From a phage, in the sequence record NC_111505.1: a DNA stretch of 64,000 bases, one strand, 5' to 3'. Both the position numbers and the translations under genes were made by a program. Below are positions 3,665 through 59,997 of this stretch, one piece after another (position 1 is the first letter of the stretch; each line of letters begins with the position of its first letter). Below the pieces are notes generated by a model that saw only the letters and a list, made by a program, of their open reading frames with translations, searched no databases and was not told the origin of the DNA.

Positions 3665-3919
3665 TTAATGTTCAGGTTTTACAAAAACTACTTCATTAAC
3701 AGTGCACCAGACAGAGTCTCCTTCATCATCTTTAAAGGTAAGGCACTGGGCTGAGTTTTCCAGCTCATCAATCTCTTCTTGTGATAAAGGGGCCCCTTCT
3801 TCCAGAAGGGCTTTTACCAGAGGGTTCTCACAAAACTCTGCTTCATAAATTGCACCGACTGTGCAATCCCTCAAAGCCCGGTCATTTGCAACACATTCTG
3901 GCTTCAAAGTAATTTTCAT
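3665..3919 (-). CDS. small paralog family protein
   Basis: 84 aa; LRDCT...KDDEGDSVWCT. Confidence 0.5.
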   Translation of the reverse strand: MKITLKPECVANDRALRDCTVGAIYEAEFCENPLVKALLEEGAPLSQEEIDELENSAQCLTFKDDEGDSVWCTVNEVVFVKPEH

Positions 3920-3995
3920 CTTGGCAGTCTCCTTAGTTATTTAAAAATCAACGCTCTGTTTGTGTGAAGCATCTTATACCTAATCTTACTTCTTG

Positions 3996-43370: not shown

Positions 43371-44861
43371 TTAAATAGTTTGTTGGAAAGTTATATTACT
43401 TTCATCGAGGTCAAACACCTCGGTCATGTTTGCAACAATATCGTTTGTGGTGTAAGCTTCGTCAGAGGCTCCCACAGGTTTAACTTGAATTACCAATCTG
43501 TTAAATCTGCCTATCGACACAGCAGCTGATGCAGCACCTACCAATTGGATATTGTACAACGTATCGGCGACATCCAAGCCGTTAACAACCTGCAAAAGAG
43601 CCTCTGTAATGGCATCTTTTTCGGTAGTAGAAAGAGCAGCACCTGAGTAGGTAATTATCATATCCAGGCGGTAAGTGTTTGCCTTAGAATAATAAATCCT
43701 TTCAGTCTGACCGTCTGATGTGGTAATATCGTAGAAGATATTCCCATAAGTTCTGTTTGTGCAAGCTATGGTTTGATACAGCGCCTGACAGATATCCTCT
43801 GTTGCACCACCAAACACCACCACTTGAAACTTATAAGGTGGTATACCTTTCGCATCCGTTTTATCGGTGTTGTTAGAGAACACTCTTACTTTCTCAACAC
43901 CTTTCACTTCGCTTACAGCGCTAAGGATTGCAGGGCGGGTAGCTTTAGATGTCAACTGTTTAGTGCTGGAAGCTCTTAGGCGATACTCTGAGTCCTTCTC
44001 AACATCCCTACCCTCATTGAATCTTTCTCGGTTGGTAAGCTTGATAAATCCGCTGGGAGTAGGCGACATTGTTGTTACAGTTTCTGCCTCTCTTGACAGC
44101 TCACCTGCCTCGTTAGCGATAACATCTAGGGTGATAGTTCTTTCACCTACAATCGGGGATACTCTGAAATCTACTCTGCTATTAAGCCCAACTTGATCAA
44201 GATTCGAATTGTATCCTATCCACAACGTTCCTGTCAACATATCTATCTGAATTAAATCGTCGTTCAACAGGGTTGTGTTATCTACAATAAATTGCTTAAT
44301 CTCGCCGTAAAAGCTTGGTAAATCAGAAGAGTCCAGAGACTTATCGGTTAAAACCAGACTTTTTGTTTTGATACTTCCATCTGTCTGGTTGGTAATTTGA
44401 AAGTTGTATTTACCGATTCTTAGATCTGGAGCGTTTATCCTGTGAGCAATAAGATTCCCCGCCACCTGCACGTCACTGCTAAGAACAAAGTTGCCACTAT
44501 CCAGCGTGTAGGTTTTGGAATCATAAATCATATTGTACGGCACAGTTGTGTTAATTGTCAACTGGCAAGTGCCTGATGATTTAGAACGACCTCTCCGGTA
44601 AATACCTTGCCTTCCAAGAAGTTCATCAAGGTAAATACCTTCTGCCCCATACAGCGTCTGGGATGCGTATACAGATGCTGCCATAAGAATAAGTTGATAC
44701 TCTCGCTCGTTGAAGATAGTGGTCAGCTTATCTGCAACGGAGTTACTTTGTACGTTGAAGTTTTCGCCAAAAGCACGGATCAGGCTTTGCTTAGTTTCAA
44801 CGATTAGGTCATTTAGGGTTGGTATAACGAAACCAGCCTCGGTCAATCCATACTTAGCCAC
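43371..44861 (-). CDS. putative baseplate J-family-like protein
   Basis: 496 aa; assignment by N-terminal resemblance and gene context only. Confidence 0.35.
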   Translation of the reverse strand: MAKYGLTEAGFVIPTLNDLIVETKQSLIRAFGENFNVQSNSVADKLTTIFNEREYQLILMAASVYASQTLYGAEGIYLDELLGRQGIYRRGRSKSSGTCQLTINTTVPYNMIYDSKTYTLDSGNFVLSSDVQVAGNLIAHRINAPDLRIGKYNFQITNQTDGSIKTKSLVLTDKSLDSSDLPSFYGEIKQFIVDNTTLLNDDLIQIDMLTGTLWIGYNSNLDQVGLNSRVDFRVSPIVGERTITLDVIANEAGELSREAETVTTMSPTPSGFIKLTNRERFNEGRDVEKDSEYRLRASSTKQLTSKATRPAILSAVSEVKGVEKVRVFSNNTDKTDAKGIPPYKFQVVVFGGATEDICQALYQTIACTNRTYGNIFYDITTSDGQTERIYYSKANTYRLDMIITYSGAALSTTEKDAITEALLQVVNGLDVADTLYNIQLVGAASAAVSIGRFNRLVIQVKPVGASDEAYTTNDIVANMTEVFDLDESNITFQQTI

Positions 44862-44966: not shown

Positions 44967-47900
44967 TTAGTCGTGAGACTCGTTCCAAGGTCCCTGGAAG
45001 CTAGAGTTTGAACGACTTACTACAACGGTAGGACAGGATATTGTGATGCCTGTCACGTTCCCTGTTGACCACGGCGTGTAAATTTCAACGATAATGTCTA
45101 TGGTTTGTTCTCCAAGGCCTGTTATCCCGATAGCGCACATACCGTCATTGTCGTTTCCGTACTTCTTGCCAGCAAGGAGCTGATGACCAGCTATCCACGC
45201 ATTCAGTTGAGAGTTGGCACGCGTACCGTTCAGTTTAAAGAAGAATGTTACGTTCTTACCTTGGCCTTGTACGTTGTCCACATATCTCCATCTCCAACGG
45301 CAAACCCTTTGCTGGGAGTTATATACTGGAGCACAATCCCCGTAAGTCCTGTGTGCAACAATTGCACCTTCGAACTGGTTAGCGCGGATAACAGAAGCTT
45401 CTACACGACCACGGAAGGTACCTCCGGTTGCATCTATGGTGCCTCTAAAGCTACCATTATTGGCATAAACATCCCCACGGAAGGTACCACTAGTGGCGTT
45501 AACTGCCCCTGTGAAGTTACCAGAACTGGCGTTGATGTTGCCTTTCACCCACACATCCATAAATTGGGCGTGCCCGTTCTTGTTAATATACCAACCGTAT
45601 TTATGGTACCCGTTGCCATCGTAGTTGTTTGACGAAATTTCTTGTGCAATCTTGGCAGAAGAGATCGTCCCGTTCTCTATAAAAGCATCTTTCAAGAACG
45701 CTTGGTTGTTCTTGATTGCGAAAGCAAGGGTTGCTGTTCCATTTCCAGGGTTGTATACCGCAAAGTTGTTTGCACTAACCATGAAGTATGATTGTACTTG
45801 GCCTCCAGAACCTTCCATGCCCAATTGGATACCTGCCACATACTTATTCCCTGCGGAGTCTACCTGTATTTTTGTGCCCCATTGAGCATTTACTTTGCCC
45901 TCTAAGTCGGTCACAGCCTTAGATGTTGTAGCCACTGCAGCTCTTAGCTCTGATACATCCCCAACATCATCAATGATCTCCTGCTTAGCAACAGCAAGTT
46001 CTTGACGAATAGCTGACGCTGTGCCATTAATAAGATCCACGGTTGCTTTGTTGGTATCGGAGATTGTAGCATCTAGAGCTGTTTTTGTGGAGGTCAGTTT
46101 ACCATCCAAATCCGCAATCGCCTGTTTGTTGGTAGAAATCTCCCCACGTGCAGAAGTTATCTGCTCCGACAGTGCGGAGGTTTTCTGATTCAACAAATCT
46201 GTGGTGGCCTTGTTGGTATTGGCAATCAGGGTATTGAGATCAGTTTTTGCGGTAGTTATCTTACCATCAAGGGTGGTATAGTTCTTAGATACTGTCGCGT
46301 TTGTCTGACTGATCTTTTGATCCAGAGTTTCAGAGGTCCTGTTGAGAAGATCCACTGTCGCCTGGTTGGTGCTTAAGATGCTTGCATCAAGTTCCGTTCT
46401 CTGGGTATTGATCTTGCCATCTAGAGTTTTATCTCCAGCAAGGTATCCGCTCTCCACACCACTTATTTGTTCTACCAACTCCCCTTTGGCTGCAACCAAT
46501 TTCTCGTCCAAAGCCTCTGTCTTTTTGTTCAGAAGATCAGTGGTTGCTTTATTGGTTGTCTCAATCAGGGATGCCAATCTTCCACTTTCAGTGTTCAAAT
46601 CGTTGGTGAACTTGTTCTGTGCAGCAACAAGTTTCCTATCCAGCGCTGTGATATTGCCATTGACATCCTCAAACTTCTGAGTTGTCTCTGTAACTACCGC
46701 ACCTATTCTGTCTCCAAGTTGCTGGAATGCCTCATCTACCCTACCATCCATGTACCTGTTAAGTTCTGTGACACGATTTTCAACCTCTTCAATAGAGGAA
46801 TCCAAAGTGCTCATCAACTCTTTATAAGTTTCTGTCTTTTTGAATTCAGCATCTATCTGAGGCATCAAATCCTCAATAGAGGTGTAGCAGCGTGCAGCGC
46901 ATTCTACAAACTGAGAACTGCCAAAAGCGTTTGTGGTCCGAATATACCAATAATAAACCTTATCGTTCTGCAGACCTTCAGATGTCCAAGTTGAACCAAC
47001 ACCCATACGGGTGGCGTTTGAAGTAACGGTTGCATCACTGGTGTCGGGCAACCTTGTCATACCGGATGTCCAAAAGTCATACTGGGTGCTTACACTTGCC
47101 AAATCCCTGCTGTGTGGAATCAAGGTGATAGCAAAGTATCCCTGCTTAACCTCTACAGAAACCGGAGCCTCAGGTGCCTGAATGTTAAACTCGCAGTACG
47201 CTTCTGGAGATACACCACCTTTATAAGATGTTGCAACCACGGTTGCTGTGTATGACCCTTTGGTCAAACCTTCTACTCTGACAAACTGCTCAACTGTCTG
47301 TGCTGTCCAAACAATCTCTCCGTTCTTTCTTACCTGCACAATATTTTGAGCGTAAGTCCCAACGTTGTCCCAAGCTAAAACACCGTGAGTTACTTCTCCA
47401 GCTTGGAGAACGGAATATCTGAAGTTTTGCGGTTGAGCTACACCAGATGGGGATATCGGAATATCTACATCGCCAGAATCCGGAAGTTGCCCTGTGGCAT
47501 CATTCCACTCTTTAGCATCTTGACGAAGTTTTACCTTGACACCGCCCTTTTTGGTGAACTCCCATTCAAGAACCCTCATTTCTTGGCCCACTATACCAAT
47601 ACTTGGGAGGTCCATTGTAACATAACGGCCAGGCTTAAATTTAAAACCTCGCATATTGCAGGTGACTTCAATAATCCTGCCAGCTCTAGCACGTCTTAAG
47701 AAGATTGCAGAAACACGTTGAGCTTGATAAGGACTGGTAACAAAGCGATAGTCTATATCGATTATCTTTCTTTCTCCATCCTTCTCTATCCACTCTGGTA
47801 CAAACACTGATGGGAAATCTGTTTCAGAATACCCTTTGGTCGGACTAGTGAATCTGCCAGTTATTGTGTTAGATCTTTTGTCAAATGAGGCTTCCGGATA

Positions 47901-48806
47901 GATCTTAACCTCACCACAGACACAGTCCTCCCTCAATGTCATTGTTGCCGGACCATAGTATGCACCAACCAGCAAACCATACTTACCAGCAACATAACTA
48001 AGGTCTGCACCGCAAGCTTTCAGCATTTCTGCCATAATACTTGCTGGGGCCTCATCCATGTCAAACTCACCGTTAATGGTGTAACGTCGCTCACTGGTGC
48101 CGTCAGCGTTTTTTACCGCCTCGTCGCATATGTTGGCAGCCTCCCTGAAGGACTCCCAGTTGATGGTTTCGTCAGGACATTTAAGGTATGTTCTTAAATA
48201 GTCCAGAATCACCAAGGCAGCGTTATTGGTATACACCTCTTTACTGGTGCGAGGATCATAGCATTTTTTACCAACCTTAACGAGTGTTACGTTTGGCAAC
48301 CCAAAAGGAAACTTGTTAGGGTCAAACCTAAAGCTGACCCGTAGCCAACTGATCCCTCTGCCTATCATGTCCGGTGACCACGATGGGCAGTGTGTTCCCA
48401 TAAAAGGATCAGAGGTTTTTCTGTCGTTATGTAGCTCCCACGATACCAAATCCCCATACGAAGAAATAGGATTACCGTCGATAAGTATATCTTCTATACC
48501 TTCTAGAGGGTGATTGGCAAGAACAATGGCACAATGGAGGGTTCTGTCTCTATCCTGCTCCAAAAATGCAAGCAATCCAGATGTACGTGTCTTCCCATAT
48601 ACTACAGAACAAGGTGCAGCAGAAGATCTAAGAAGCTTTTGCCTATCTTGCTGACTTCTGTAAGATTTGTTACCCTCGAAAATCTTATCCAGAGTTCTGG
48701 TGGTAACAGTGTTCAGGCTGTCAGCCAGAGCTGCCTTGGATGCGTTCCAGTCATAGCTTGAAGATCTTGCAGAAGCAACGATGTTATCAATCATTGCAAT
48801 TGGCAT
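44967..48806 (-). CDS. central tail fibre / host specificity protein (J-like) with coiled-coil repeats and fibre tip
   Basis: 1279 aa; N-terminal 450 aa resemble the lambda J / GTA g15 tail-protein family; tandem repeats in the middle; C-terminal GxFRG repeats. Confidence 0.5.
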   Translation of the reverse strand: MPIAMIDNIVASARSSSYDWNASKAALADSLNTVTTRTLDKIFEGNKSYRSQQDRQKLLRSSAAPCSVVYGKTRTSGLLAFLEQDRDRTLHCAIVLANHPLEGIEDILIDGNPISSYGDLVSWELHNDRKTSDPFMGTHCPSWSPDMIGRGISWLRVSFRFDPNKFPFGLPNVTLVKVGKKCYDPRTSKEVYTNNAALVILDYLRTYLKCPDETINWESFREAANICDEAVKNADGTSERRYTINGEFDMDEAPASIMAEMLKACGADLSYVAGKYGLLVGAYYGPATMTLREDCVCGEVKIYPEASFDKRSNTITGRFTSPTKGYSETDFPSVFVPEWIEKDGERKIIDIDYRFVTSPYQAQRVSAIFLRRARAGRIIEVTCNMRGFKFKPGRYVTMDLPSIGIVGQEMRVLEWEFTKKGGVKVKLRQDAKEWNDATGQLPDSGDVDIPISPSGVAQPQNFRYSVLQAGEVTHGVLAWDNVGTYAQNIVQVRKNGEIVWTAQTVEQFVRVEGLTKGSYTATVVATSYKGGVSPEAYCEFNIQAPEAPVSVEVKQGYFAITLIPHSRDLASVSTQYDFWTSGMTRLPDTSDATVTSNATRMGVGSTWTSEGLQNDKVYYWYIRTTNAFGSSQFVECAARCYTSIEDLMPQIDAEFKKTETYKELMSTLDSSIEEVENRVTELNRYMDGRVDEAFQQLGDRIGAVVTETTQKFEDVNGNITALDRKLVAAQNKFTNDLNTESGRLASLIETTNKATTDLLNKKTEALDEKLVAAKGELVEQISGVESGYLAGDKTLDGKINTQRTELDASILSTNQATVDLLNRTSETLDQKISQTNATVSKNYTTLDGKITTAKTDLNTLIANTNKATTDLLNQKTSALSEQITSARGEISTNKQAIADLDGKLTSTKTALDATISDTNKATVDLINGTASAIRQELAVAKQEIIDDVGDVSELRAAVATTSKAVTDLEGKVNAQWGTKIQVDSAGNKYVAGIQLGMEGSGGQVQSYFMVSANNFAVYNPGNGTATLAFAIKNNQAFLKDAFIENGTISSAKIAQEISSNNYDGNGYHKYGWYINKNGHAQFMDVWVKGNINASSGNFTGAVNATSGTFRGDVYANNGSFRGTIDATGGTFRGRVEASVIRANQFEGAIVAHRTYGDCAPVYNSQQRVCRWRWRYVDNVQGQGKNVTFFFKLNGTRANSQLNAWIAGHQLLAGKKYGNDNDGMCAIGITGLGEQTIDIIVEIYTPWSTGNVTGITISCPTVVVSRSNSSFQGPWNESHD
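45950..46750 (-). repeat. imperfect tandem repeats encoding coiled-coil modules within the J-like gene
   Basis: four to five units of about 50 aa (TNKATTDLLNKKT, TNQATVDLLNRTS, TNKATTDLLNQKT, TNKATVDLINGTA); DNA units recur at about 160-190 nt; coordinates approximate. Confidence 0.5.
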
Positions 48807-49243
48807 TAATACCTCCAGACATCAACAACGATAGAATCTTTCATATCGAACGTAAAGATCCCTTTATCACCTTTCGCCCAAATCTGGTTGTTCCAGAACA
48901 CACCAGCGGTGAGGCCGTTCAGACCTTCGAAAATAACAATATCACCACGCTGAACCTGTTTAGGAGTATCCAGTCGAGTCAAAAAGAGATCAAAAATAGT
49001 AGGCAGGTGTGTGGTTTTGAAACGGAGCATGCACCATCTCTTGCTTTCCAACTCTGTTTTATACGTTCCTTCAAAGTTAGAAAGAAAATCTGTTCCGTAT
49101 TGGGCATCAACACATTTAGCCGCAAAAGTGCAACAATCGTGGAATCCCCATTCAAACGGGGCGGTGGCTTCTTCGTCAAATACTTTCCACAATTTTTCTT
49201 GCCAGTCTACTAAACGAGGGTGTGTGCTCATTAAACCTCCCAA
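48806..49243 (-). CDS. putative tail tip protein, possible NlpC/P60-like peptidase
   Basis: 145 aa; GFHDCCTF Cys motif; directly upstream of the J-like gene. Confidence 0.3.
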   Translation of the reverse strand: MGGLMSTHPRLVDWQEKLWKVFDEEATAPFEWGFHDCCTFAAKCVDAQYGTDFLSNFEGTYKTELESKRWCMLRFKTTHLPTIFDLFLTRLDTPKQVQRGDIVIFEGLNGLTAGVFWNNQIWAKGDKGIFTFDMKDSIVVDVWRY

Positions 49244-49797
49244 ATGATCGGGCGGCTCGCCACCTGATCCACATATTTAAAAAATCTGTCATTATCGTTT
49301 CTTGAGCTATGGCTTTCCTCTGTGTATCGGTAAGGAAAACCTCTTAACCAGCTGTTGAAGATGGAAGAGATGGATATGGACAAAGCACTATTCTCCCCTG
49401 TCTGAATAGCCATGTCTGTTATAAGGCCGTCAAACAAGCCATTAGTTGTGACAGGTAAACCATTCTCCATAGCGGTGATATATAACGTGGCACGGCAACC
49501 AGAGTACTCCGTCTTCAGCAGATCGCCAACATATTTAGGATCAAACCCGTTCAATGTTGCTACCACAGATCCGAAGTTGGTGGCATCTTTCTCAGACACA
49601 GCAGTCAATGTTGCTGATCCACCTATCCCTATAAAATGTTGCCCCTCAATCACCACAACACCAGTTCCTGAGCACACCCTGACAGTCCCTGTTGGTAGCT
49701 CTAACTTTGCAGCAATTAAGATTTCAACACCATCAAGCTCTAACTTTTCAAGAAATAAATTATCTAATGGCGCTCTTATCATCTTAGAAATCCTCAA
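49231..49797 (-). CDS. putative tail tip/hub protein
   Basis: 188 aa; context upstream of the J-like gene. Confidence 0.3.
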   Translation of the reverse strand: MRISKMIRAPLDNLFLEKLELDGVEILIAAKLELPTGTVRVCSGTGVVVIEGQHFIGIGGSATLTAVSEKDATNFGSVVATLNGFDPKYVGDLLKTEYSGCRATLYITAMENGLPVTTNGLFDGLITDMAIQTGENSALSISISSIFNSWLRGFPYRYTEESHSSRNDNDRFFKYVDQVASRPIIWEV

Positions 49798-50374
49798 AGA
49801 AGTTGATAACTATATTGTCACCTTTCTGCATAGCATCAACCTTTTGCTTAATTTTATAAAGATCCCTGATATGAAATCTACCCTTCGGAGATTGAGTTAT
49901 TATCTTCATGGTATCCCCTGCGGCAATAGGTTTCCTAAGTCTTGGGGATATGTTTATAACAGCGGCCCCAACACCATCACTTCGTACTGATGCTGTCACC
50001 ACTTTCAACTCATCATTGACAGATATTTTATCCCCAGCCCTGGCTATATCCCTGTTGGGCTCCCAACCAACCGTCTTCAAAAAATCGTCGTTACCAGTCG
50101 GTCCGAGAGCGATTGGCTCGTTGGAGGTCACTGAATGCCCATAAGCCTTGATGAGAAAAATGTTTCCATCTTTGTAAACCTGATCAACAAAACTTTTAAG
50201 CTCCAACAACTGAGATTCACTGATATTGGAAACCGTCAAAGTACCTTTCCAGTTAGGTGTGGCATAGGTTACTTTTTGCGTCTTACCTGTAAACGGGCTT
50301 TTAAATGTAACGATGTCTGCCAGTAACTCCAATCTAATATCTGGGAGGTATCTAGGCCTTTCCCATAAAAACAT
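49784..50374 (-). CDS. putative distal tail protein
   Basis: 196 aa; context only. Confidence 0.3.
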   Translation of the reverse strand: MFLWERPRYLPDIRLELLADIVTFKSPFTGKTQKVTYATPNWKGTLTVSNISESQLLELKSFVDQVYKDGNIFLIKAYGHSVTSNEPIALGPTGNDDFLKTVGWEPNRDIARAGDKISVNDELKVVTASVRSDGVGAAVINISPRLRKPIAAGDTMKIITQSPKGRFHIRDLYKIKQKVDAMQKGDNIVINFFEDF

Positions 50375-50473: not shown

Positions 50474-53400
50474 TTACTTCAGTTTCTCTTGCAACTCAGT
50501 AACAACCTCCGTCAATTTTTTAACCTGCTCCTCAAGGGCGGTTATTTTATCATCCTGTTCCCTGCAAACCTGGACAAGCAAACCTGTTACAGCTGCGTAG
50601 TCAACGTTATAGAACCTTTCCTCGGTCATCAAAGGAATGCCGTCTTGAGTAGGACCTTCTATTTCCTTCCTTTTCACGAAAGACCCTACTGCCTCTGGCA
50701 ATGCTTCCATAACCTCTTGAGCAATCACGCCTGCATAAGGCATACCATTCTCTTTCAAGGTGTAGGTATAGCCATTCATCTTCCTGATAGCTTCCAGCGC
50801 GTCAGGTATGACCTCTATATTATCCTTCAGATCCCTATCAGAACTTTGACTAACAGTGGTACATACTACCGCACCGTTGACAGCAAAATATCTTGACTTG
50901 GCCTCATCTGCCTTGGCCCCACAGTGGAATACCCAGCTGCCGGTTGTTGAGTTATCACCTATCTGAAACTCCAGCACGTTCTTCCTATCTGCGCCATTGC
51001 CCCAATAGTACAACCTGCCTGTATTAGAAGGCATGTTGGAAGTGTTGGTAACATCCGCTCCACCACCTGTGTGTATTGTAAACTCTGGTTCAAGATTGGA
51101 GCCTTGAGTTTTTAAAGTGATACCCTTACCACCTAGCTGCTGCCAATGGCCCCATGTGAAAACACCACCTATCGTTGTTCCATAACGTAGGAATTTTTCT
51201 CCAAGGTACGATATATATTCCTGTACGCAACTTTCTGGAACGTTGGCGTAGTTCCTGTATACGATAAGCGTACCTGCCTGGGAACATGGGTAGTTTCTAT
51301 CAGGTGTGGCTTGAGCATTGGCCTCCTGATGATAAAAACCCTCCCTATCTCCTTTGTAGTCGTTAAGGTCATTAGTTCCCAACCCTTGACCACGGTGCTG
51401 AATAACTTTGTTCCACGCTCTGTGGTTACCCTGCTCTATGGAACGGGTGTACAGCTGATCTAAACGACCTGCCATCTGGAAAGCATAGTTTCCAGAAAAC
51501 GCCACAGACAACCCGCCAACAACCATTGAACCTTCAGGCCCGTTGACGTTGCCAGCCAGTATTTTGGACGGATTATTATTTCCGAACTGGTTGTTCCAGT
51601 CTGCACCTGTGTGGCATACAAAACCACCAGGGGCCGAGAAAGTACCGTCTTTGTTGAAATTGTAGAATCTGTGAGCGGAACCTACAACATCACGAACAAT
51701 AACTTGACCAGCTTCTGGAGTAGACCTGAACTCTGCTTGACCTTGGAGGCCAGCACCATTACCACATTTAGAGGTAAACGTACCGTTAGTAAGATCATCT
51801 GTCCCATCTGATGCACACTGGAATCCTGCATTAGAGAATAACGCCTTTCTAGGACTGCCGTAGCACAAATAGTCAATACCGTCAGCCCATAGTTCGACTT
51901 TAGGCATGTTCATTTTGCTCATCACCGCATAGCGTTCAGCAGTGCCTATATAGTGCCACTGTGTGCCGCCGCCAGTGTAGAACCCAGAGGTACCTTTGAA
52001 GTCAACAATAGGTCTGGTGTTGGTATTGTTATCTCCAAGAACAGCCAGATTTAAATCTGCTGACTGGAGAGGTGCAACGAACTTAACACCGTCCTGATTG
52101 TTTGTTACAGAGCCGACTTGATAATCTTGCTCTCTGGTAAACACTTCGACAACATTTCTACTTGCGTATATGCTGACAGGGAAAGCACGAGCCTCCGCAT
52201 AGAAAGCAACATACTCTTGTTTACCCCTTGTTGGAGCAACCATCCCAAGAAGTGCTTTTTCATTTTGATAGAAATTCACTACCCCGTAGAAAGAGTCTCC
52301 TCTATCTGTCCAACCACCAGTCCTATAGTGGCACTGTAAGGTGGCGCAGTTCATAGGGTCACCACCGGATGACGATCTGGTGACTAGGGTAATATCAGTG
52401 CCAGTTGCTGGAGCATAGTACGGATCTGTTCTAACGATGATTGGGTAATATTTCCCATCTTCCATACCTGCAGTTCTTGGCAGTGTTAAGAAATCTTTGA
52501 CACCCGCAGCTATAGGAACTTTGAACAGATTCTGAGCATCTGCCAGGGTTGTAGCCCCAGTACCACCCGCTGCCTGAGGTAAAGGTTCCCACTTGGCCTT
52601 CCGGTTGTTATAAACACCCCATTCCAGAGTACCATTACCGGATTCATCCATACCGCCATCCCAGACGACCATCTTAGCGGCTTTCTTGGAACCCCAGAAC
52701 CCTCTTTCTGCCCCTGAACTACGAATCCATTCCCCAAGTCCCCAGTTTGTCAGCTGACCAGTGAGATCCCCGACCTGCATGTACTTAGGACAATCTAATA
52801 CACCATCTTCACGGAATCCTAAATACCGATGAGTTTCAGATCCTTTTGCGCCTTTGTGCAGGTGGACTGTTAACCAAGTCTTATTGTCGTTTCTTACCTC
52901 GGAGTAGATCCTATAACCATGCTCAAGAACACCATCAGCGTCATATTTATCTCCATGGAGAATACCTGAAGCATTTTTAACATCTCCTGAGTATTGAGCT
53001 AAGTAAAGGTGCCCGAAAGCAGGGGAGTTGTTTTTACCAAGGCCGATATGAGATCTGAAGGTGTCATCATTACGAGGTCTGACCATCGGCTGCCATGCAG
53101 TCCACTGGTTTGTGTTGGCCTGATAGGTTCTCAAATACCAAACATCCACGTTAGAGAATGGATAGTATTCCTGACGACAACCTGTACCACCGTTAGCATT
53201 GTTCTGCCAAACAATCAAGTGACCAGCACCAGAACCTGCAGGATAACCATTTGCCTCAGTTGCATTAGCAGTCATCGGCTGATAGTATATGCCGTCCTGA
53301 TTACCAGTCAAGTTATTGATATTGAAATTTGCCTCAAGGGCTGCACGTTGCTTATAGAAAGCACCGATATTGATACGGACTCCAGCGGCATCTCTGGCAC

Positions 53401-54274
53401 CTGTACCACCTTGCTCTATAGCAAGAGGTTGCCACGAGGCTGTTTGCTGGTTCCACATACCCCAACGGCCTGCTGCATCAAGCTGCAAGTACCCTGCCGT
53501 GTTTAAATCATCTCCAGCACGGATAACTGTTCTTGTTGGGTTGTTTGCCTCCAGGCGTTTAAATTCATCACGAAGTGCTATTCTTTTTGTTGTTGCTACA
53601 CCGTTGGTTACTGCAATGGTATACATGGCTCCTGAGGTAGCGCCACGGAAAATACCATCAACAGTTGTAGTATCACGACGAGATACCACACCGTTCAGAA
53701 ATTTTTCACCAGCTGCTTCAGAAGGGTAGTTAGTGGTTCTTCCCTCTTCAATAACTGCAGGGCCAACAAAGTTGACAAGGTGAATGACATCGCCTACAGT
53801 ATGCACAGTACCAAAATCTACCCGCTGTGCAAGCGCTTTAGCATCGTTGGCTGTCTGAACCGTAACATCCATTACATCCTGGACAGACTGCCCTTCAGCT
53901 GTCATGATCATAGATGCGCCAATGGTAGACTCCAGCTCCTCCCTTAAGGACGGGTCTGTATATACCATCCATGCAGCATCGGTAATCCCACCATCAGCGT
54001 ACGGTGAAGACAGTGCAGGAACAGTGTGCGGAAATTCGCCTTTCCAACGCAGGTAGAGGTCTTCCTCTTCGAAGTAGGCAAAATCCATTGGGCCGTTTAA
54101 CTTACCACCTTCCTTAAAGGAGATTACATGAGAAACAGTCCCATCCACATGGACAACATCGCCAATTTTTACACGACGGGTCAGGTCTGGTTGTTGAACA
54201 ACCAGGTAATCATCCTCTGTCACTGCGGTAGTGGCAGGAAGAGATTCAATTCTGACAACTTTAATATCAGCCAT
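50474..54274 (-). CDS. long tail fibre with C-terminal intramolecular chaperone (peptidase S74-like) domain
   Basis: 1266 aa; C-terminal SDRDLKDNIEVIPDALEAIRKMNGYTYTL... matches the endosialidase/T5 pb1-type autoproteolytic chaperone; N-terminus shares an anchor module with 56909..57577. Confidence 0.75.
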   Translation of the reverse strand: MADIKVVRIESLPATTAVTEDDYLVVQQPDLTRRVKIGDVVHVDGTVSHVISFKEGGKLNGPMDFAYFEEEDLYLRWKGEFPHTVPALSSPYADGGITDAAWMVYTDPSLREELESTIGASMIMTAEGQSVQDVMDVTVQTANDAKALAQRVDFGTVHTVGDVIHLVNFVGPAVIEEGRTTNYPSEAAGEKFLNGVVSRRDTTTVDGIFRGATSGAMYTIAVTNGVATTKRIALRDEFKRLEANNPTRTVIRAGDDLNTAGYLQLDAAGRWGMWNQQTASWQPLAIEQGGTGARDAAGVRINIGAFYKQRAALEANFNINNLTGNQDGIYYQPMTANATEANGYPAGSGAGHLIVWQNNANGGTGCRQEYYPFSNVDVWYLRTYQANTNQWTAWQPMVRPRNDDTFRSHIGLGKNNSPAFGHLYLAQYSGDVKNASGILHGDKYDADGVLEHGYRIYSEVRNDNKTWLTVHLHKGAKGSETHRYLGFREDGVLDCPKYMQVGDLTGQLTNWGLGEWIRSSGAERGFWGSKKAAKMVVWDGGMDESGNGTLEWGVYNNRKAKWEPLPQAAGGTGATTLADAQNLFKVPIAAGVKDFLTLPRTAGMEDGKYYPIIVRTDPYYAPATGTDITLVTRSSSGGDPMNCATLQCHYRTGGWTDRGDSFYGVVNFYQNEKALLGMVAPTRGKQEYVAFYAEARAFPVSIYASRNVVEVFTREQDYQVGSVTNNQDGVKFVAPLQSADLNLAVLGDNNTNTRPIVDFKGTSGFYTGGGTQWHYIGTAERYAVMSKMNMPKVELWADGIDYLCYGSPRKALFSNAGFQCASDGTDDLTNGTFTSKCGNGAGLQGQAEFRSTPEAGQVIVRDVVGSAHRFYNFNKDGTFSAPGGFVCHTGADWNNQFGNNNPSKILAGNVNGPEGSMVVGGLSVAFSGNYAFQMAGRLDQLYTRSIEQGNHRAWNKVIQHRGQGLGTNDLNDYKGDREGFYHQEANAQATPDRNYPCSQAGTLIVYRNYANVPESCVQEYISYLGEKFLRYGTTIGGVFTWGHWQQLGGKGITLKTQGSNLEPEFTIHTGGGADVTNTSNMPSNTGRLYYWGNGADRKNVLEFQIGDNSTTGSWVFHCGAKADEAKSRYFAVNGAVVCTTVSQSSDRDLKDNIEVIPDALEAIRKMNGYTYTLKENGMPYAGVIAQEVMEALPEAVGSFVKRKEIEGPTQDGIPLMTEERFYNVDYAAVTGLLVQVCREQDDKITALEEQVKKLTEVVTELQEKLK

Positions 54275-58315: not shown

Positions 58316-58993
58316 TTAGTGCGGTCCACTTGTCTCGCCATCAGGGCAAGAGTGGGTATGACCTTTATATTCTGCATAGAATGAATCCAAATCCACACCA
58401 GCAGCAGTTATAATTCTACCAGATGGGTCTATTGTGGCACCATTCATTCTGATATTTCCATCCACAGCAGCTCGCAAATTGGCAGCCCCGTTAGTGAAAG
58501 AAAACTCCCCACTGCTGTCGCACCGTAATGTCCCACCCGGTGTTTGAAGCTCAAAATCGCCAGAAGGTGTCAGTTTAAAATAAACCCTATCATTCCATAA
58601 CTCTACGTTATCAGGATCAATTTGTAAAGCGTTCGAGTCTGAATGAACAGAGGTGATTGCCCACCCTGGAAACAGGCCGTGAGTTTGTTGATCGTCGTTA
58701 TTGTTTTCATTCCTCTCTGAAAACTGCAATCCTACAACATCTCCGGCCTTAATAGGGAGTGTTAACCTTGCCTTTCCGCTGTTTGCAGACATCACCTGAA
58801 TCGGAACGTCATAGATAAGAGGGTATCTCTCCACATCTCCGTCATCAAACGTGGTTTCAGCTATTGGCTGCACGGCTGCAGAAGGTATACTGTAGTCAAC
58901 ACTGACAACTCTGGCCCTGATACTGGTGTGGTAGTCCCTCATTATTTTTTCTATAAAGGATCTTACAGCAGCATCTTTCCTATTTATTGCCAT
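58316..58993 (-). CDS. putative baseplate central spike (gpV/gp5-like)
   Basis: 225 aa; C-terminal HTHSCPDGETSGPH apex-like His motif. Confidence 0.4.
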   Translation of the reverse strand: MAINRKDAAVRSFIEKIMRDYHTSIRARVVSVDYSIPSAAVQPIAETTFDDGDVERYPLIYDVPIQVMSANSGKARLTLPIKAGDVVGLQFSERNENNNDDQQTHGLFPGWAITSVHSDSNALQIDPDNVELWNDRVYFKLTPSGDFELQTPGGTLRCDSSGEFSFTNGAANLRAAVDGNIRMNGATIDPSGRIITAAGVDLDSFYAEYKGHTHSCPDGETSGPH

Positions 58994-59997
58994 TATACCT
59001 CCTCAGTTTTGTCAACAACTCCACCTACTGTTTCCCCAAGACCAAGCTCTGTAGTGTAATCACCACCTTCTATGGTGCCCTTATGATGCACCGTGATCAC
59101 CTTATAGAAGCCTGTATATTGATTGCTTTTAAGATAAATAGTGGACTCTGGGAGGATAGCTCCGTTAAGGCATGTGGTTACAGTAAGGCCAACATCCTCT
59201 CTCGGGTTTTTCTTTTTCTTTTTAGATGTCGAACCACCTTTGGCAGCAGCTTTAGCTTTTCGTTTTTTAGCAGGTTCTGGGTTTTTAGGGGTAGGTGATC
59301 CGTGCATCCCAGACTCTGCACTTATTTCAAACACAGAGTCCTTGAACCTTTTTCCAACCTTGGTCCAATATAAAGCACCGTCCTGAACGCTGAATGTTGA
59401 GTTTGTCAGCCTTGCAAACCTGCGGAGGTTTTCTGCGGTGTTTCCGGAGAAAGCCATAGAGTATTGCAAAGTCTGGTTTCCAAAACCAACAACCCTACCT
59501 TTTGGCAAGTTCATATCCTTCAGCAGGTCATTAAGCACAGAGTTCAGAGGTGTGCCTTTCTGATAAGATCTTGTGCTCTGGCACTTAATGATGTTCTCAG
59601 TGCCATCCCCAAAGATGAACTTAGTTTTTCTGGTCGGACCTTCCCACCTGTCTTCAACAAACTCCACAGTTCCGGAGAATATCAACTGGTTCTCATTATC
59701 ATAGCCAGCTTCAAACATAACTGCAAGGGCATCAGCCTGATGCATATCCAGATAGTTAACTGTATCGTCAGACAGGTTGTAAACTGTCACATAGCCTTTG
59801 TTTGGCTCTTTGGTATTATCCTTTTGTATGTCAAACTCTATATTGGCAGCACCAGTGTCCGAGCTAATCTCATAAACTCCGGAATCACTCTCCCCTTTCT
59901 TTTCAACAGATTTTGGGATATTGGTTTTTGATTTGCCGCCATGTTCTACAGGACGACCAAATAGCAATCGCCATGTTCTACGTCTGTACTCTGCCAT
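58993..59997 (-). CDS. putative baseplate hub protein
   Basis: 334 aa; Lys-rich insert AKKRKAKAAAKGGSTSKKKKK; context. Confidence 0.35.
   Translation of the reverse strand: MAEYRRRTWRLLFGRPVEHGGKSKTNIPKSVEKKGESDSGVYEISSDTGAANIEFDIQKDNTKEPNKGYVTVYNLSDDTVNYLDMHQADALAVMFEAGYDNENQLIFSGTVEFVEDRWEGPTRKTKFIFGDGTENIIKCQSTRSYQKGTPLNSVLNDLLKDMNLPKGRVVGFGNQTLQYSMAFSGNTAENLRRFARLTNSTFSVQDGALYWTKVGKRFKDSVFEISAESGMHGSPTPKNPEPAKKRKAKAAAKGGSTSKKKKKNPREDVGLTVTTCLNGAILPESTIYLKSNQYTGFYKVITVHHKGTIEGGDYTTELGLGETVGGVVDKTEEV

Follow-up and report, generated by a model that had tools for sequence, protein, structure and literature searches.

A module array in the J-like tail protein of an rV5-like phage probably encodes an alpha-helical shaft that occurs in four lengths

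In phage lambda, the tail protein gpJ carries a three-helix alpha-helical shaft (AHS; residues 809-861; PDB 8IYK, 8XCI) that follows the second FNIII/Ig domain, precedes a beta-prism, and flips on receptor binding (PMC11101478). The central fibres of F-type pyocins likewise place an extended three-stranded coiled coil before the beta-prism (F7 residues 921-1083, PMC12874032; F2 PyoF10, PDB 25vf, PMC13455828); this AHS has been solved as a three-stranded coiled coil in the F2 fibre, carries side fibres (PMC13455828), and refolds to drive penetration (PMC12874032). Helical shafts that connect the Ig domains of J-like proteins to the beta-prism are thus a known kind of structure, the length of which is highly variable in the family. 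Here we describe the corresponding region of a J-like tail protein gene in a 64,000-nucleotide (nt) stretch of phage record NC_111505.1, which we call the window. Taken as a whole, the explanation that we consider likely is that a repeat array in this gene encodes the alpha-helical shaft of a lambda-J-like tail protein of the rV5 gp37 type. Positions in amino acids (aa) refer to the 1279-aa protein of the window, the main parts of which are as follows.

44967..48806, minus strand: J-like tail protein gene (3840 nt, 1279 aa); PHROG 31, Pfam and identity to rV5
46851..47168, minus strand: last Ig/FN3-like domain (Ig_J_second, aa 547-652), directly before the shaft; PF24489, aligns to lambda gpJ 666-844
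45927..46877, minus strand: alpha-helical shaft (aa 644-960), predicted three-stranded coiled coil that holds the array; hydrophobic period, AlphaFold2 (AF2) and lambda alignment
45516..45938, minus strand: Phage_Tail_Tip domain (aa 957-1097), beta-prism after the shaft; PF09327, alignment to lambda gpJ 842-991 and AF2 strands from aa 955

DNA and protein matches of the J-like gene place the window phage among the rV5-like myoviruses of the genus Vequintavirus. At the DNA level, the gene shares 94-95% identity with that of HMD-6, PDX, FV3 and other rV5-like phages, and its product shares 98.1% aa identity with the protein of phage V5 (rV5), whose gp37 has the same length of 1279 aa and was found in virions by mass spectrometry (PMC3606486). 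A preliminary description of this DNA, made from the letters alone, had called the gene J-like, and this is borne out by a PHROG 31 'central tail fiber J' match spanning aa 143-1137 (E 2.6e-164) and by the Pfam domains Ig_J_second (106 bits against a cut-off of 27, E 1.2e-30) and Phage_Tail_Tip (132 bits against a cut-off of 22, E 1.2e-38). Ig_J scores 24.8 bits, under its cut-off of 29, and Phage-tail_3 was not detected in the protein by the Pfam search. The hub region at the N-terminus is homologous to J-like tail tip proteins, with aa 48-650 being 52-59% identical to the J proteins of Queuovirinae siphophages, and the Ig/FNIII domains are followed by the Phage_Tail_Tip (DUF1983) beta-prism.

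Residues 666-844 of lambda gpJ align to aa 497-678 and residues 842-991 to aa 955-1116; since the flanks align on both sides, the array sits exactly at the position of the lambda AHS. The lambda AHS comprises ~53 residues without internal repeats, whereas the shaft of the window comprises ~300 residues in five modules, corresponding to ~277 aa extra. The likeness to F-type pyocins extends to sequence: ~130 residues are similar, with the F2 fibre (25vf, 979-1108) aligning to aa 866-998 at E 7e-5, a junction motif is held in common, and both contain a helix kink. The F7 shaft, with its 163 residues, is not described as modular, whereas the shaft of the window is roughly double that length and varies in module number between alleles.

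A nearly Pro-free amphipathic helix of ~300 residues occupies the space between the last Ig/FN3 domain and Phage_Tail_Tip, with one Pro in the 321 residues of the shaft region. Hydrophobicity over aa 645-965 shows a single spectral peak at 3.62 residues, with a power of 193 against a maximum of 96 in shuffled sequences, and the helix is continuous with a period inside the range of ~3.5-3.67 that characterizes coiled coils. Control regions of the J-like protein show nothing comparable. Across the scans of the window shaft, the period was 3.62-3.63 aa, with a power of 193-244 against shuffle maxima of 96-102. The hydrophobic phase stays within ~60 degrees over aa 661-958, and this constancy indicates that one hydrophobic seam runs through all modules. 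The same holds for all four Vequintavirus alleles introduced below, each of which keeps one coherent 3.63-residue seam (period 3.62-3.64 aa; power 137-319 against shuffle maxima of 78-102). The AF2 model of the monomer predicts helices at aa 644-655, 659-784 and 794-945, and strands from aa 955; because of its low confidence (mean predicted local distance difference test score, pLDDT, of 59; predicted template-modelling score, pTM, of 0.22), we used the model for secondary structure only, with no fold search. The break that it predicts in the shaft comprises nine residues:

46428..46454, minus strand: predicted helix break ESGYLAGDK (aa 785-793) in module U1; AF2; present in the 4- and 6-module alleles, not in the 3-module allele

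At this break the periodicity power drops to 9-17 and the phase carries on. The coiled-coil repeat region claimed in the preliminary description is therefore supported by its helical character, by a period of 3.62-3.63 at about twice the power of any shuffle, by the AF2 helices, and by the homologous shafts.

The array had been placed at 45950-46750, which corresponds to aa 686-953, and had been described as four to five imperfect repeats of about 50 aa. This proved accurate: the repeats span aa ~708-960 and consist of four clear modules (43-62 aa) and one degenerate module. Each clear module starts with the anchor TN(K/Q)AT(T/V)DL(L/I)N, at aa 751, 813, 864 and 918 (offsets of 62, 51 and 54 aa). 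In a 20-residue BLOSUM62 diagonal scan compared with 30 whole-protein shuffles, the segments starting at these positions gave off-diagonal scores of 51-77 against a shuffle maximum of 37; a self-BLASTP of the repeat segment returned the identity match only. The degenerate fifth module aligns to the other four with one gap. The Phage_Tail_Tip domain starts with an incomplete anchor, TSKAVTDLEGK (aa 961), and the module anchor is a copy of this sequence at the helix/beta-prism junction.

46557..46685, minus strand: module U0, degenerate (aa 708-750); one-gap alignment to U1-U4, weak hidden Markov model match at 720-730
46371..46556, minus strand: module U1 (aa 751-812, 62 aa); diagonal scan and anchor
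46218..46370, minus strand: module U2 (aa 813-863, 51 aa); diagonal scan and anchor
46056..46217, minus strand: module U3 (aa 864-917, 54 aa); diagonal scan and anchor
45927..46055, minus strand: module U4 (aa 918-960, 43 aa); diagonal scan and anchor
45882..45926, minus strand: terminal partial anchor TSKAVTDLEGKVNAQ (aa 961-975) at the helix-to-beta-prism junction; also kept in the Seuratvirus J protein and the F2 pyocin fibre

The array is genuinely periodic: the signal is strong at the protein level but faint at the DNA level. Tandem Repeats Finder (TRF) reported nothing in the array region of the window, and no array in the related 6-module allele ECP32 either. A DNA repeat search recovered a 29-nt motif four times at 69-79% identity, spaced by 162, 153 and 186 nt, and autocorrelation with a codon-shuffle control gave z = 5.2 at 153 nt, 4.3 at 162 nt and 4.1 at 315 nt, the threshold (95th percentile of shuffle maxima) being 3.47. 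When up to 3 mismatches are allowed, the 15-mer GGTTGCTTTGTTGGT is found 9 times in the window, where 2.6 occurrences are expected, and 3 of the 9 lie in register inside the array. Of the recurring DNA units that the preliminary description had seen, the weak periodicity (z 4.1-5.2) stands, but the units are strongly diverged (42-64% identity, nothing by TRF); a tandem repeat finder, the check that it had proposed, is silent where autocorrelation gives peaks at 153, 162 and 315 nt. Formal analysis finds periods in protein and DNA alike.

A shaft of this kind could also produce the impression of repeats without containing any, through the composition typical of any coiled coil. The sequence is indeed low-complexity, rich in Thr, Leu and Ala, and yields weak, sub-threshold Pfam matches to unrelated coiled-coil families. 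However, it is a specific 10-residue anchor that recurs at the offsets given above, with scores up to twice those of any shuffle; the same periods appear in the DNA; and orthologous modules can be traced one-to-one between alleles. Diagonal scan, autocorrelation and module tracing together rule out mere compositional likeness, which we regard as extremely improbable.

Comparison of repeat number in related phages, as the preliminary description had suggested, revealed alleles with 1, 3, 4 or 6 modules, with the whole length difference located inside the array:

P0016 allele: 1090 aa, 1 module; window-type protein minus aa 724-912
nimi allele: 1199 aa, 3 anchors
window allele: 1279 aa, 4 anchors
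ECP32 allele: 1381 aa, 6 anchors

In a three-way alignment of the nimi, window and ECP32 proteins, all insertions and deletions fall within the shaft, the flanks being 94-100% identical and the shaft 34-84%. Measured from DLMPQI to NAQWG, the shaft is 138, 247, 327 and 429 aa long for 1, 3, 4 and 6 modules, respectively. Copy number thus varies among close relatives with nearly identical flanks, and the length change in whole modules is real. Among 131 phage records that match the shaft, ~57 are of the 4-module class, 14 of the 6-module class and roughly 44 of the 3-module class, and length is uniform within each class among the matches listed (1023, 882 or 783 nt matched). The P0016 allele came from a large protein collection, searched with the shaft together with its flanking domains; the shaft alone returned 3 proteins, as low-complexity words filled the candidates.

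Several records in these searches are unusual. The 'Campylobacter phage' records MG065644-MG065682 (host Campylobacter jejuni) carry a J-like gene with ~94% DNA identity to that of the window, have rV5-like genome sizes (most of them 128-143 kb) and include representatives of each of the three shaft classes; mislabelling of the host or contamination of the preparations is the probable explanation. In phage Alma (OV101294) the J-like gene is annotated as two overlapping coding sequences in the shaft (3880-3960), apparently through a frameshift, and the proteins P0017 (958 aa, 12 member sequences) and P0025 (786 aa) stop before Phage_Tail_Tip, apparently within the shaft. These interrupted versions are either sequencing errors or real split genes.

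The 1-module allele P0016 differs from the window type by a deletion of 567 nt or 189 aa (aa 724-912), which is in register and removes exactly 27 heptads. Its breakpoints coincide with two copies of a T-A-L-D motif:

46638..46649, minus strand: left T-A-L-D motif (aa 720-723, ACA GCG CTG GAT), left breakpoint of the P0016 junction
46071..46082, minus strand: right T-A-L-D motif (aa 909-912, ACA GCT CTA GAT), right breakpoint of the P0016 junction

At the junction, the T-A-L-D codons of aa 720-723 are joined to the sequence after the second T-A-L-D (909-912), and exact microhomology amounts to just 3-5 nt. The same junction is found in a Logan contig and in a 137,989-bp ENA contig, the J-like genes of which are 100% identical; the accessions concerned are SRR14687637 and ERZ26722212. 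We rejected an assembly artefact as an unlikely origin of the deletion, given that the breakpoint sites share no k-mer longer than 5 nt and that two assemblies give one junction.

How the shaft changes length is a separate question, to which the preliminary description had answered unequal recombination between the recurring DNA units. The data do not support this mechanism. Pairs of modules share 42-64% nucleotide identity, with in-register exact runs between different units of at most 14 nt, and the two extra modules of ECP32 likewise show low identity and exact runs of at most 14 nt. Homologous recombination in E. coli normally needs about 20-30 bp. The observed identity and run lengths are therefore too little for ordinary homologous recombination, and the head-to-tail units are not alike enough in DNA either to be detected by TRF or to recombine often.

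The differences between alleles are also old. Where the encoded amino acid is conserved, synonymous differences affect 47-61% of shaft codons versus 17-23% of flank codons, which marks the 3-, 4- and 6-module alleles as old cassettes; one module compared between the window and ECP32 retains 98% protein identity at just 78% DNA identity. Nucleotide identity to ECP32 falls sharply at ~aa 690 and recovers at ~aa 920, and in the comparison with nimi the corresponding limits are ~aa 625 and 980. As read from these alignments, the sharp boundaries and high shaft divergence are the signature of cassettes having been exchanged by recombination within the flanks, which are conserved. We considered fast vertical evolution of the shaft and rejected it in view of the sharp boundaries and a synonymous divergence ~3-fold above that of the flanks. 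New lengths would then arise by two routes: (i) infrequent illegitimate recombination, in register, between short motifs that recur, of which the 189-aa deletion is the single case seen, and (ii) whole-cassette swaps by homologous recombination in the nearly identical flanks.

A dynamic repeat locus, in which frequent unequal homologous recombination or slippage keeps fibre length variable within populations, would agree with the differences in module number among relatives and with P0016 being an in-register deletion between repeated motifs. Yet the low identity between units (42-64%, exact runs of at most 14 nt), the failure of TRF to find an array in the window or ECP32, the 3-5 nt of microhomology at the P0016 junction, the single length of all members of a class among the matches listed, and the ancient differences between alleles all speak against it. 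This possibility, as first raised in the preliminary description, is already largely refuted and in our view very improbable; we infer that the array is no fast-switching repeat locus.

With respect to function, homology to lambda gpJ and to the fibres of F-type pyocins suggests that three chains of the J-like protein would associate into a parallel coiled coil. A coiled coil extends by 0.148 nm per residue. Assuming fully extended helical parts, the shafts with 1, 3, 4 and 6 modules would measure ~17, 33, 45 and 60 nm, respectively, and the coiled coil would be a spacer that sets the projection of the conserved distal domain, at ~45 nm in the window and over a range of ~17-60 nm among the alleles. 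Together with a prism and tip of ~22 nm, scaled from lambda, the 45-nm shaft would, by inference only, come close to the thin fibres of rV5, which are reported at 70 nm (PMC3606486).

Four points weigh against this interpretation: (i) the trimeric state of the predicted shaft is drawn from homology, and the AF2 monomer model has low confidence; (ii) the shaft is rich in Thr, Ser and Asn, and homologous pyocin shafts can become beta-prism, such that by analogy its resting state in the virion could differ; (iii) the predicted break at aa 785-793 could allow the shaft to fold back, which would void the length estimates; and (iv) the two contigs with the deletion are identical in the J-like gene and may represent one phage, so that the event is documented once.

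The second of these points leads to a rival explanation. According to a 2026 preprint, the 163-residue coiled coil between the FNIII domains and the C-terminal beta-prism of the F7 pyocin refolds to beta-prism on target binding (PMC12874032). The window shaft could correspondingly be a metastable, spring-loaded coiled coil that is converted on receptor binding to a beta-prism seeded by the Phage_Tail_Tip strands, with module number setting stroke size or stored energy. Such a switch, compatible with a coiled-coil spacer as the resting state, strikes us as possible if rather unlikely. The same conversion as in F7 is predicted for 21 of 24 siphophage fibres (PMC12874032); residues 841-861 of the lambda AHS also become strands (PMC11101478) and align to aa ~955-975; and the C-terminal ~130 aa of the shaft are homologous to the F2 pyocin shaft.

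The preprint further reports an SxSxxMxxLxS pattern in each strand, the orientation of which alternates through the part that switches, with 68% Ala at the 'small' positions (PMC12874032). The anchors of the window shaft (for example, SLIETTNKATT) copy the junction motif AAVATTSKAVT and fit the reversed pattern SxLxxMxxSxS, and a forward match often follows 17 aa on. Relaxed-motif counts are 11 against 6.7 expected in the window and 16 against 6.9 in ECP32, where none of 1000 shuffles reaches the count. However, 77 of 1000 shuffles reach the count of the window in the relaxed scan, and a weight matrix built from the published frequencies gives 4 matches against 1.4 expected, a number that 30 of 500 shuffles attain. 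In both alleles the matches are paralogous copies, and hence not independent, and the 'small' positions of the window shaft are mostly Thr, Ser or Ala as opposed to the published 68% Ala. A contractile tail would moreover have no need of fold-switch energy for penetration, and the authors of the preprint state that lambda and T5 operate without an extensive switch (PMC12874032).

The break in U1 bears on another proposal, which we consider unlikely, namely that the shaft is a trunk on which the branched adsorption apparatus of rV5 carries other lateral fibres or tailspikes, with the break or each module serving as an attachment site. In the F2 and F7 pyocins, the helical shaft has a glycine kink bearing an acidic patch, to which three side-fibre trimers bind (PMC13455828; PMC12874032), the window shaft has its one predicted break at ESGYLAGDK, the literature leaves open how the several lateral fibres of Vequintaviruses are attached (PMC8594841), and a neighbouring gene has a Tail_spike_N adaptor domain. 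On the other hand, the same fibre genes (93-100% identical) accompany the 3-, 4- and 6-module alleles, the 1-module allele has the same immediate neighbours, and the 3-module allele is entirely without the break. The one other fibre gene that varies does so without regard to shaft class, and no partner co-varying with shaft class was identified among the genes of the 30-kb fibre locus. The F-type pyocin shaft both switches its fold and carries side fibres, whereas for the window shaft these remain rival proposals only.

Apart from the J-like gene, strong variation in the 30-kb locus is limited to the neighbouring fibre gene (50474-54274; 1266 aa, with Tail_spike_N and a Peptidase_S74 chaperone domain), at 87-93% identity. 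In nimi its C-terminus is replaced, giving a protein of 1479 aa, and an extra 110-aa open reading frame (ORF) follows. The fibre-gene variants of the locus do not track shaft class, and the other genes are 93-100% identical.

The location of the J-like protein on the virion may be considered from its genomic context. Directly upstream lie three genes whose order and sizes are those found after the tape measure gene in the siphovirus WildeMaa:

48806..50374, minus strand: siphovirus-type tip module of three genes upstream of the J-like gene; PHROGs 1302, 2048 and 2134, Pfam DUF6950 and WildeMaa order
49784-50374, minus strand: distal-tail-protein-like gene; PHROG 1302
49231-49797, minus strand: tail protein gene; PHROG 2048
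48806-49243, minus strand: DUF6950 gene; Pfam DUF6950

The M-, L- and K-like genes are thus present, the tape measure gene is not adjacent to them, and no gpI-like gene was identified among the tip-module genes of the window. In the siphovirus lambda, the tail tube is closed by gpJ, whereas the window phage is a myovirus with a separate hub and spike; it carries its own sheath, tube initiator, hub, spike and wedge genes for a contractile tail, and its tip module does not directly follow the tape measure of a non-contractile tail that it would close. Together with the J-like gene, the tip module is complete (44967-50374) and lies within the baseplate and fibre locus of this myovirus, with context genes at 43371-44861 and 58316-59997. 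In view of the phage's own hub, spike and wedge, the label 'central fibre' is doubtful, and from the preliminary description's 'J-like central fibre' we retain the first part and question the second. One curated annotation names the protein a lateral fibre, and the phi92 structure paper names no J-like protein.

Among the matches listed for the J N-terminus, there were none at 60-95% identity and none from another large myovirus or a myovirus outside Vequintavirus; judging by these matches, the siphovirus-type tip module looks like a horizontal capture specific to Vequintavirus. A broader scenario, to which we assign a low probability, would treat the captured module (distal-tail-protein-like, tail protein, DUF6950 and J-like) as an auxiliary fibre, with the coiled coil acting as a receptor-triggered fold-switch or docking trunk and the 1/3/4/6 alleles tuning stroke, reach or the number of attached fibres. 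If true, the alleles would be a ready-made series on how shaft length controls triggering.

The J-like tip proteins of Queuovirinae (Seuratvirus WildeMaa Bas23, 1040 aa; Nonagvirus) are the closest relatives of the N-terminal 650 residues, at 52-59% identity, and share with the window phage the upstream three-gene module and the start and end motifs of the shaft. Their shaft, however, has just 76 or 111 residues and is without TNKATxDL modules, and the rV5-type shafts exceed that of WildeMaa (111 aa) by 27 to 318 residues. In 37 diverse J-like representatives, the spacer from the last Ig domain to Phage_Tail_Tip ranges from 25 to ~2460 aa, and many of the long spacers hold internal repeats of 32, 36-37, 44 or 122 aa. 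These other repeat shafts differ in unit length and sequence, and none of those examined is a set of near-identical proteins that differ in module number alone. In some J-like proteins of 2000-4800 aa, similarity to the query is spread over many separate stretches.

In the J protein of the lambdoid phage mEp044, the region from the Ig domain to Phage_Tail_Tip also contains tandem helical repeats, 25-30% identical to the window shaft, but these are repeats of 36 aa and far more regular than the modules of the window. Residues ~830-1380 (of the translated part) contain many 36-aa units LDKKTDASVSRLDKAIADETSARTEAISGVNASIST and a 334-aa higher-order duplication (scores 85-98), and TRF detects a 108-nt period with 76% matches in the gene. 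The mEp044 array is a better candidate than that of the window for ongoing change in repeat number. The trimeric coiled-coil tail needle gp26 of P22-like podophages (PDB 4LIN) contains a repeated helical motif that resembles the one in the shaft (LDGKITTAKTDL in the window versus LDGRVTTAENNI in gp26, E 2e-3), but this similarity is weak and local, and the architecture of gp26 and its attachment to the portal-tail channel are unrelated to the J-like protein.

Two further features of the J-like gene were observed. A second short repeat at aa 1087-1135 (45402-45548) consists of four 11-residue GxFxGxVxA units (GNFTGAVNATS / GTFRGDVYANN / GSFRGTIDATG / GTFRGRVEA; diagonal scores of 61-63 against a shuffle maximum of 37) and probably forms a stretch of beta-helix or prism that follows the Phage_Tail_Tip domain. 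Two plus-strand ORFs lie antisense to the shaft (46342-46680, 112 aa; 46467-46994, 175 aa) and are regarded as by-products of biased coiled-coil codon usage.

Allelic variation of the Vequintavirus J-like gene has been noted earlier and was read as variation in the distal, host-contacting end (PMC8594841). What is new is that the variation is confined to the stalk, that the stalk is modular, and that a natural 1/3/4/6 series exists, including one clean recent deletion. This corrects the earlier reading: with the variation located in the stalk and not in the distal receptor-binding end, receptor specificity is probably not encoded by it in the usual manner. The series also shows where a J-like protein tolerates in-register insertions and deletions, which is of use for phage engineering. 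Its interest lies mainly in being a convenient natural system for the effect of shaft length, of a kind that lambda and the F-type pyocins do not offer: with four natural alleles whose flanks are 94-100% identical and which differ in shaft modules only (138 to 429 residues), the role of shaft length is directly testable.

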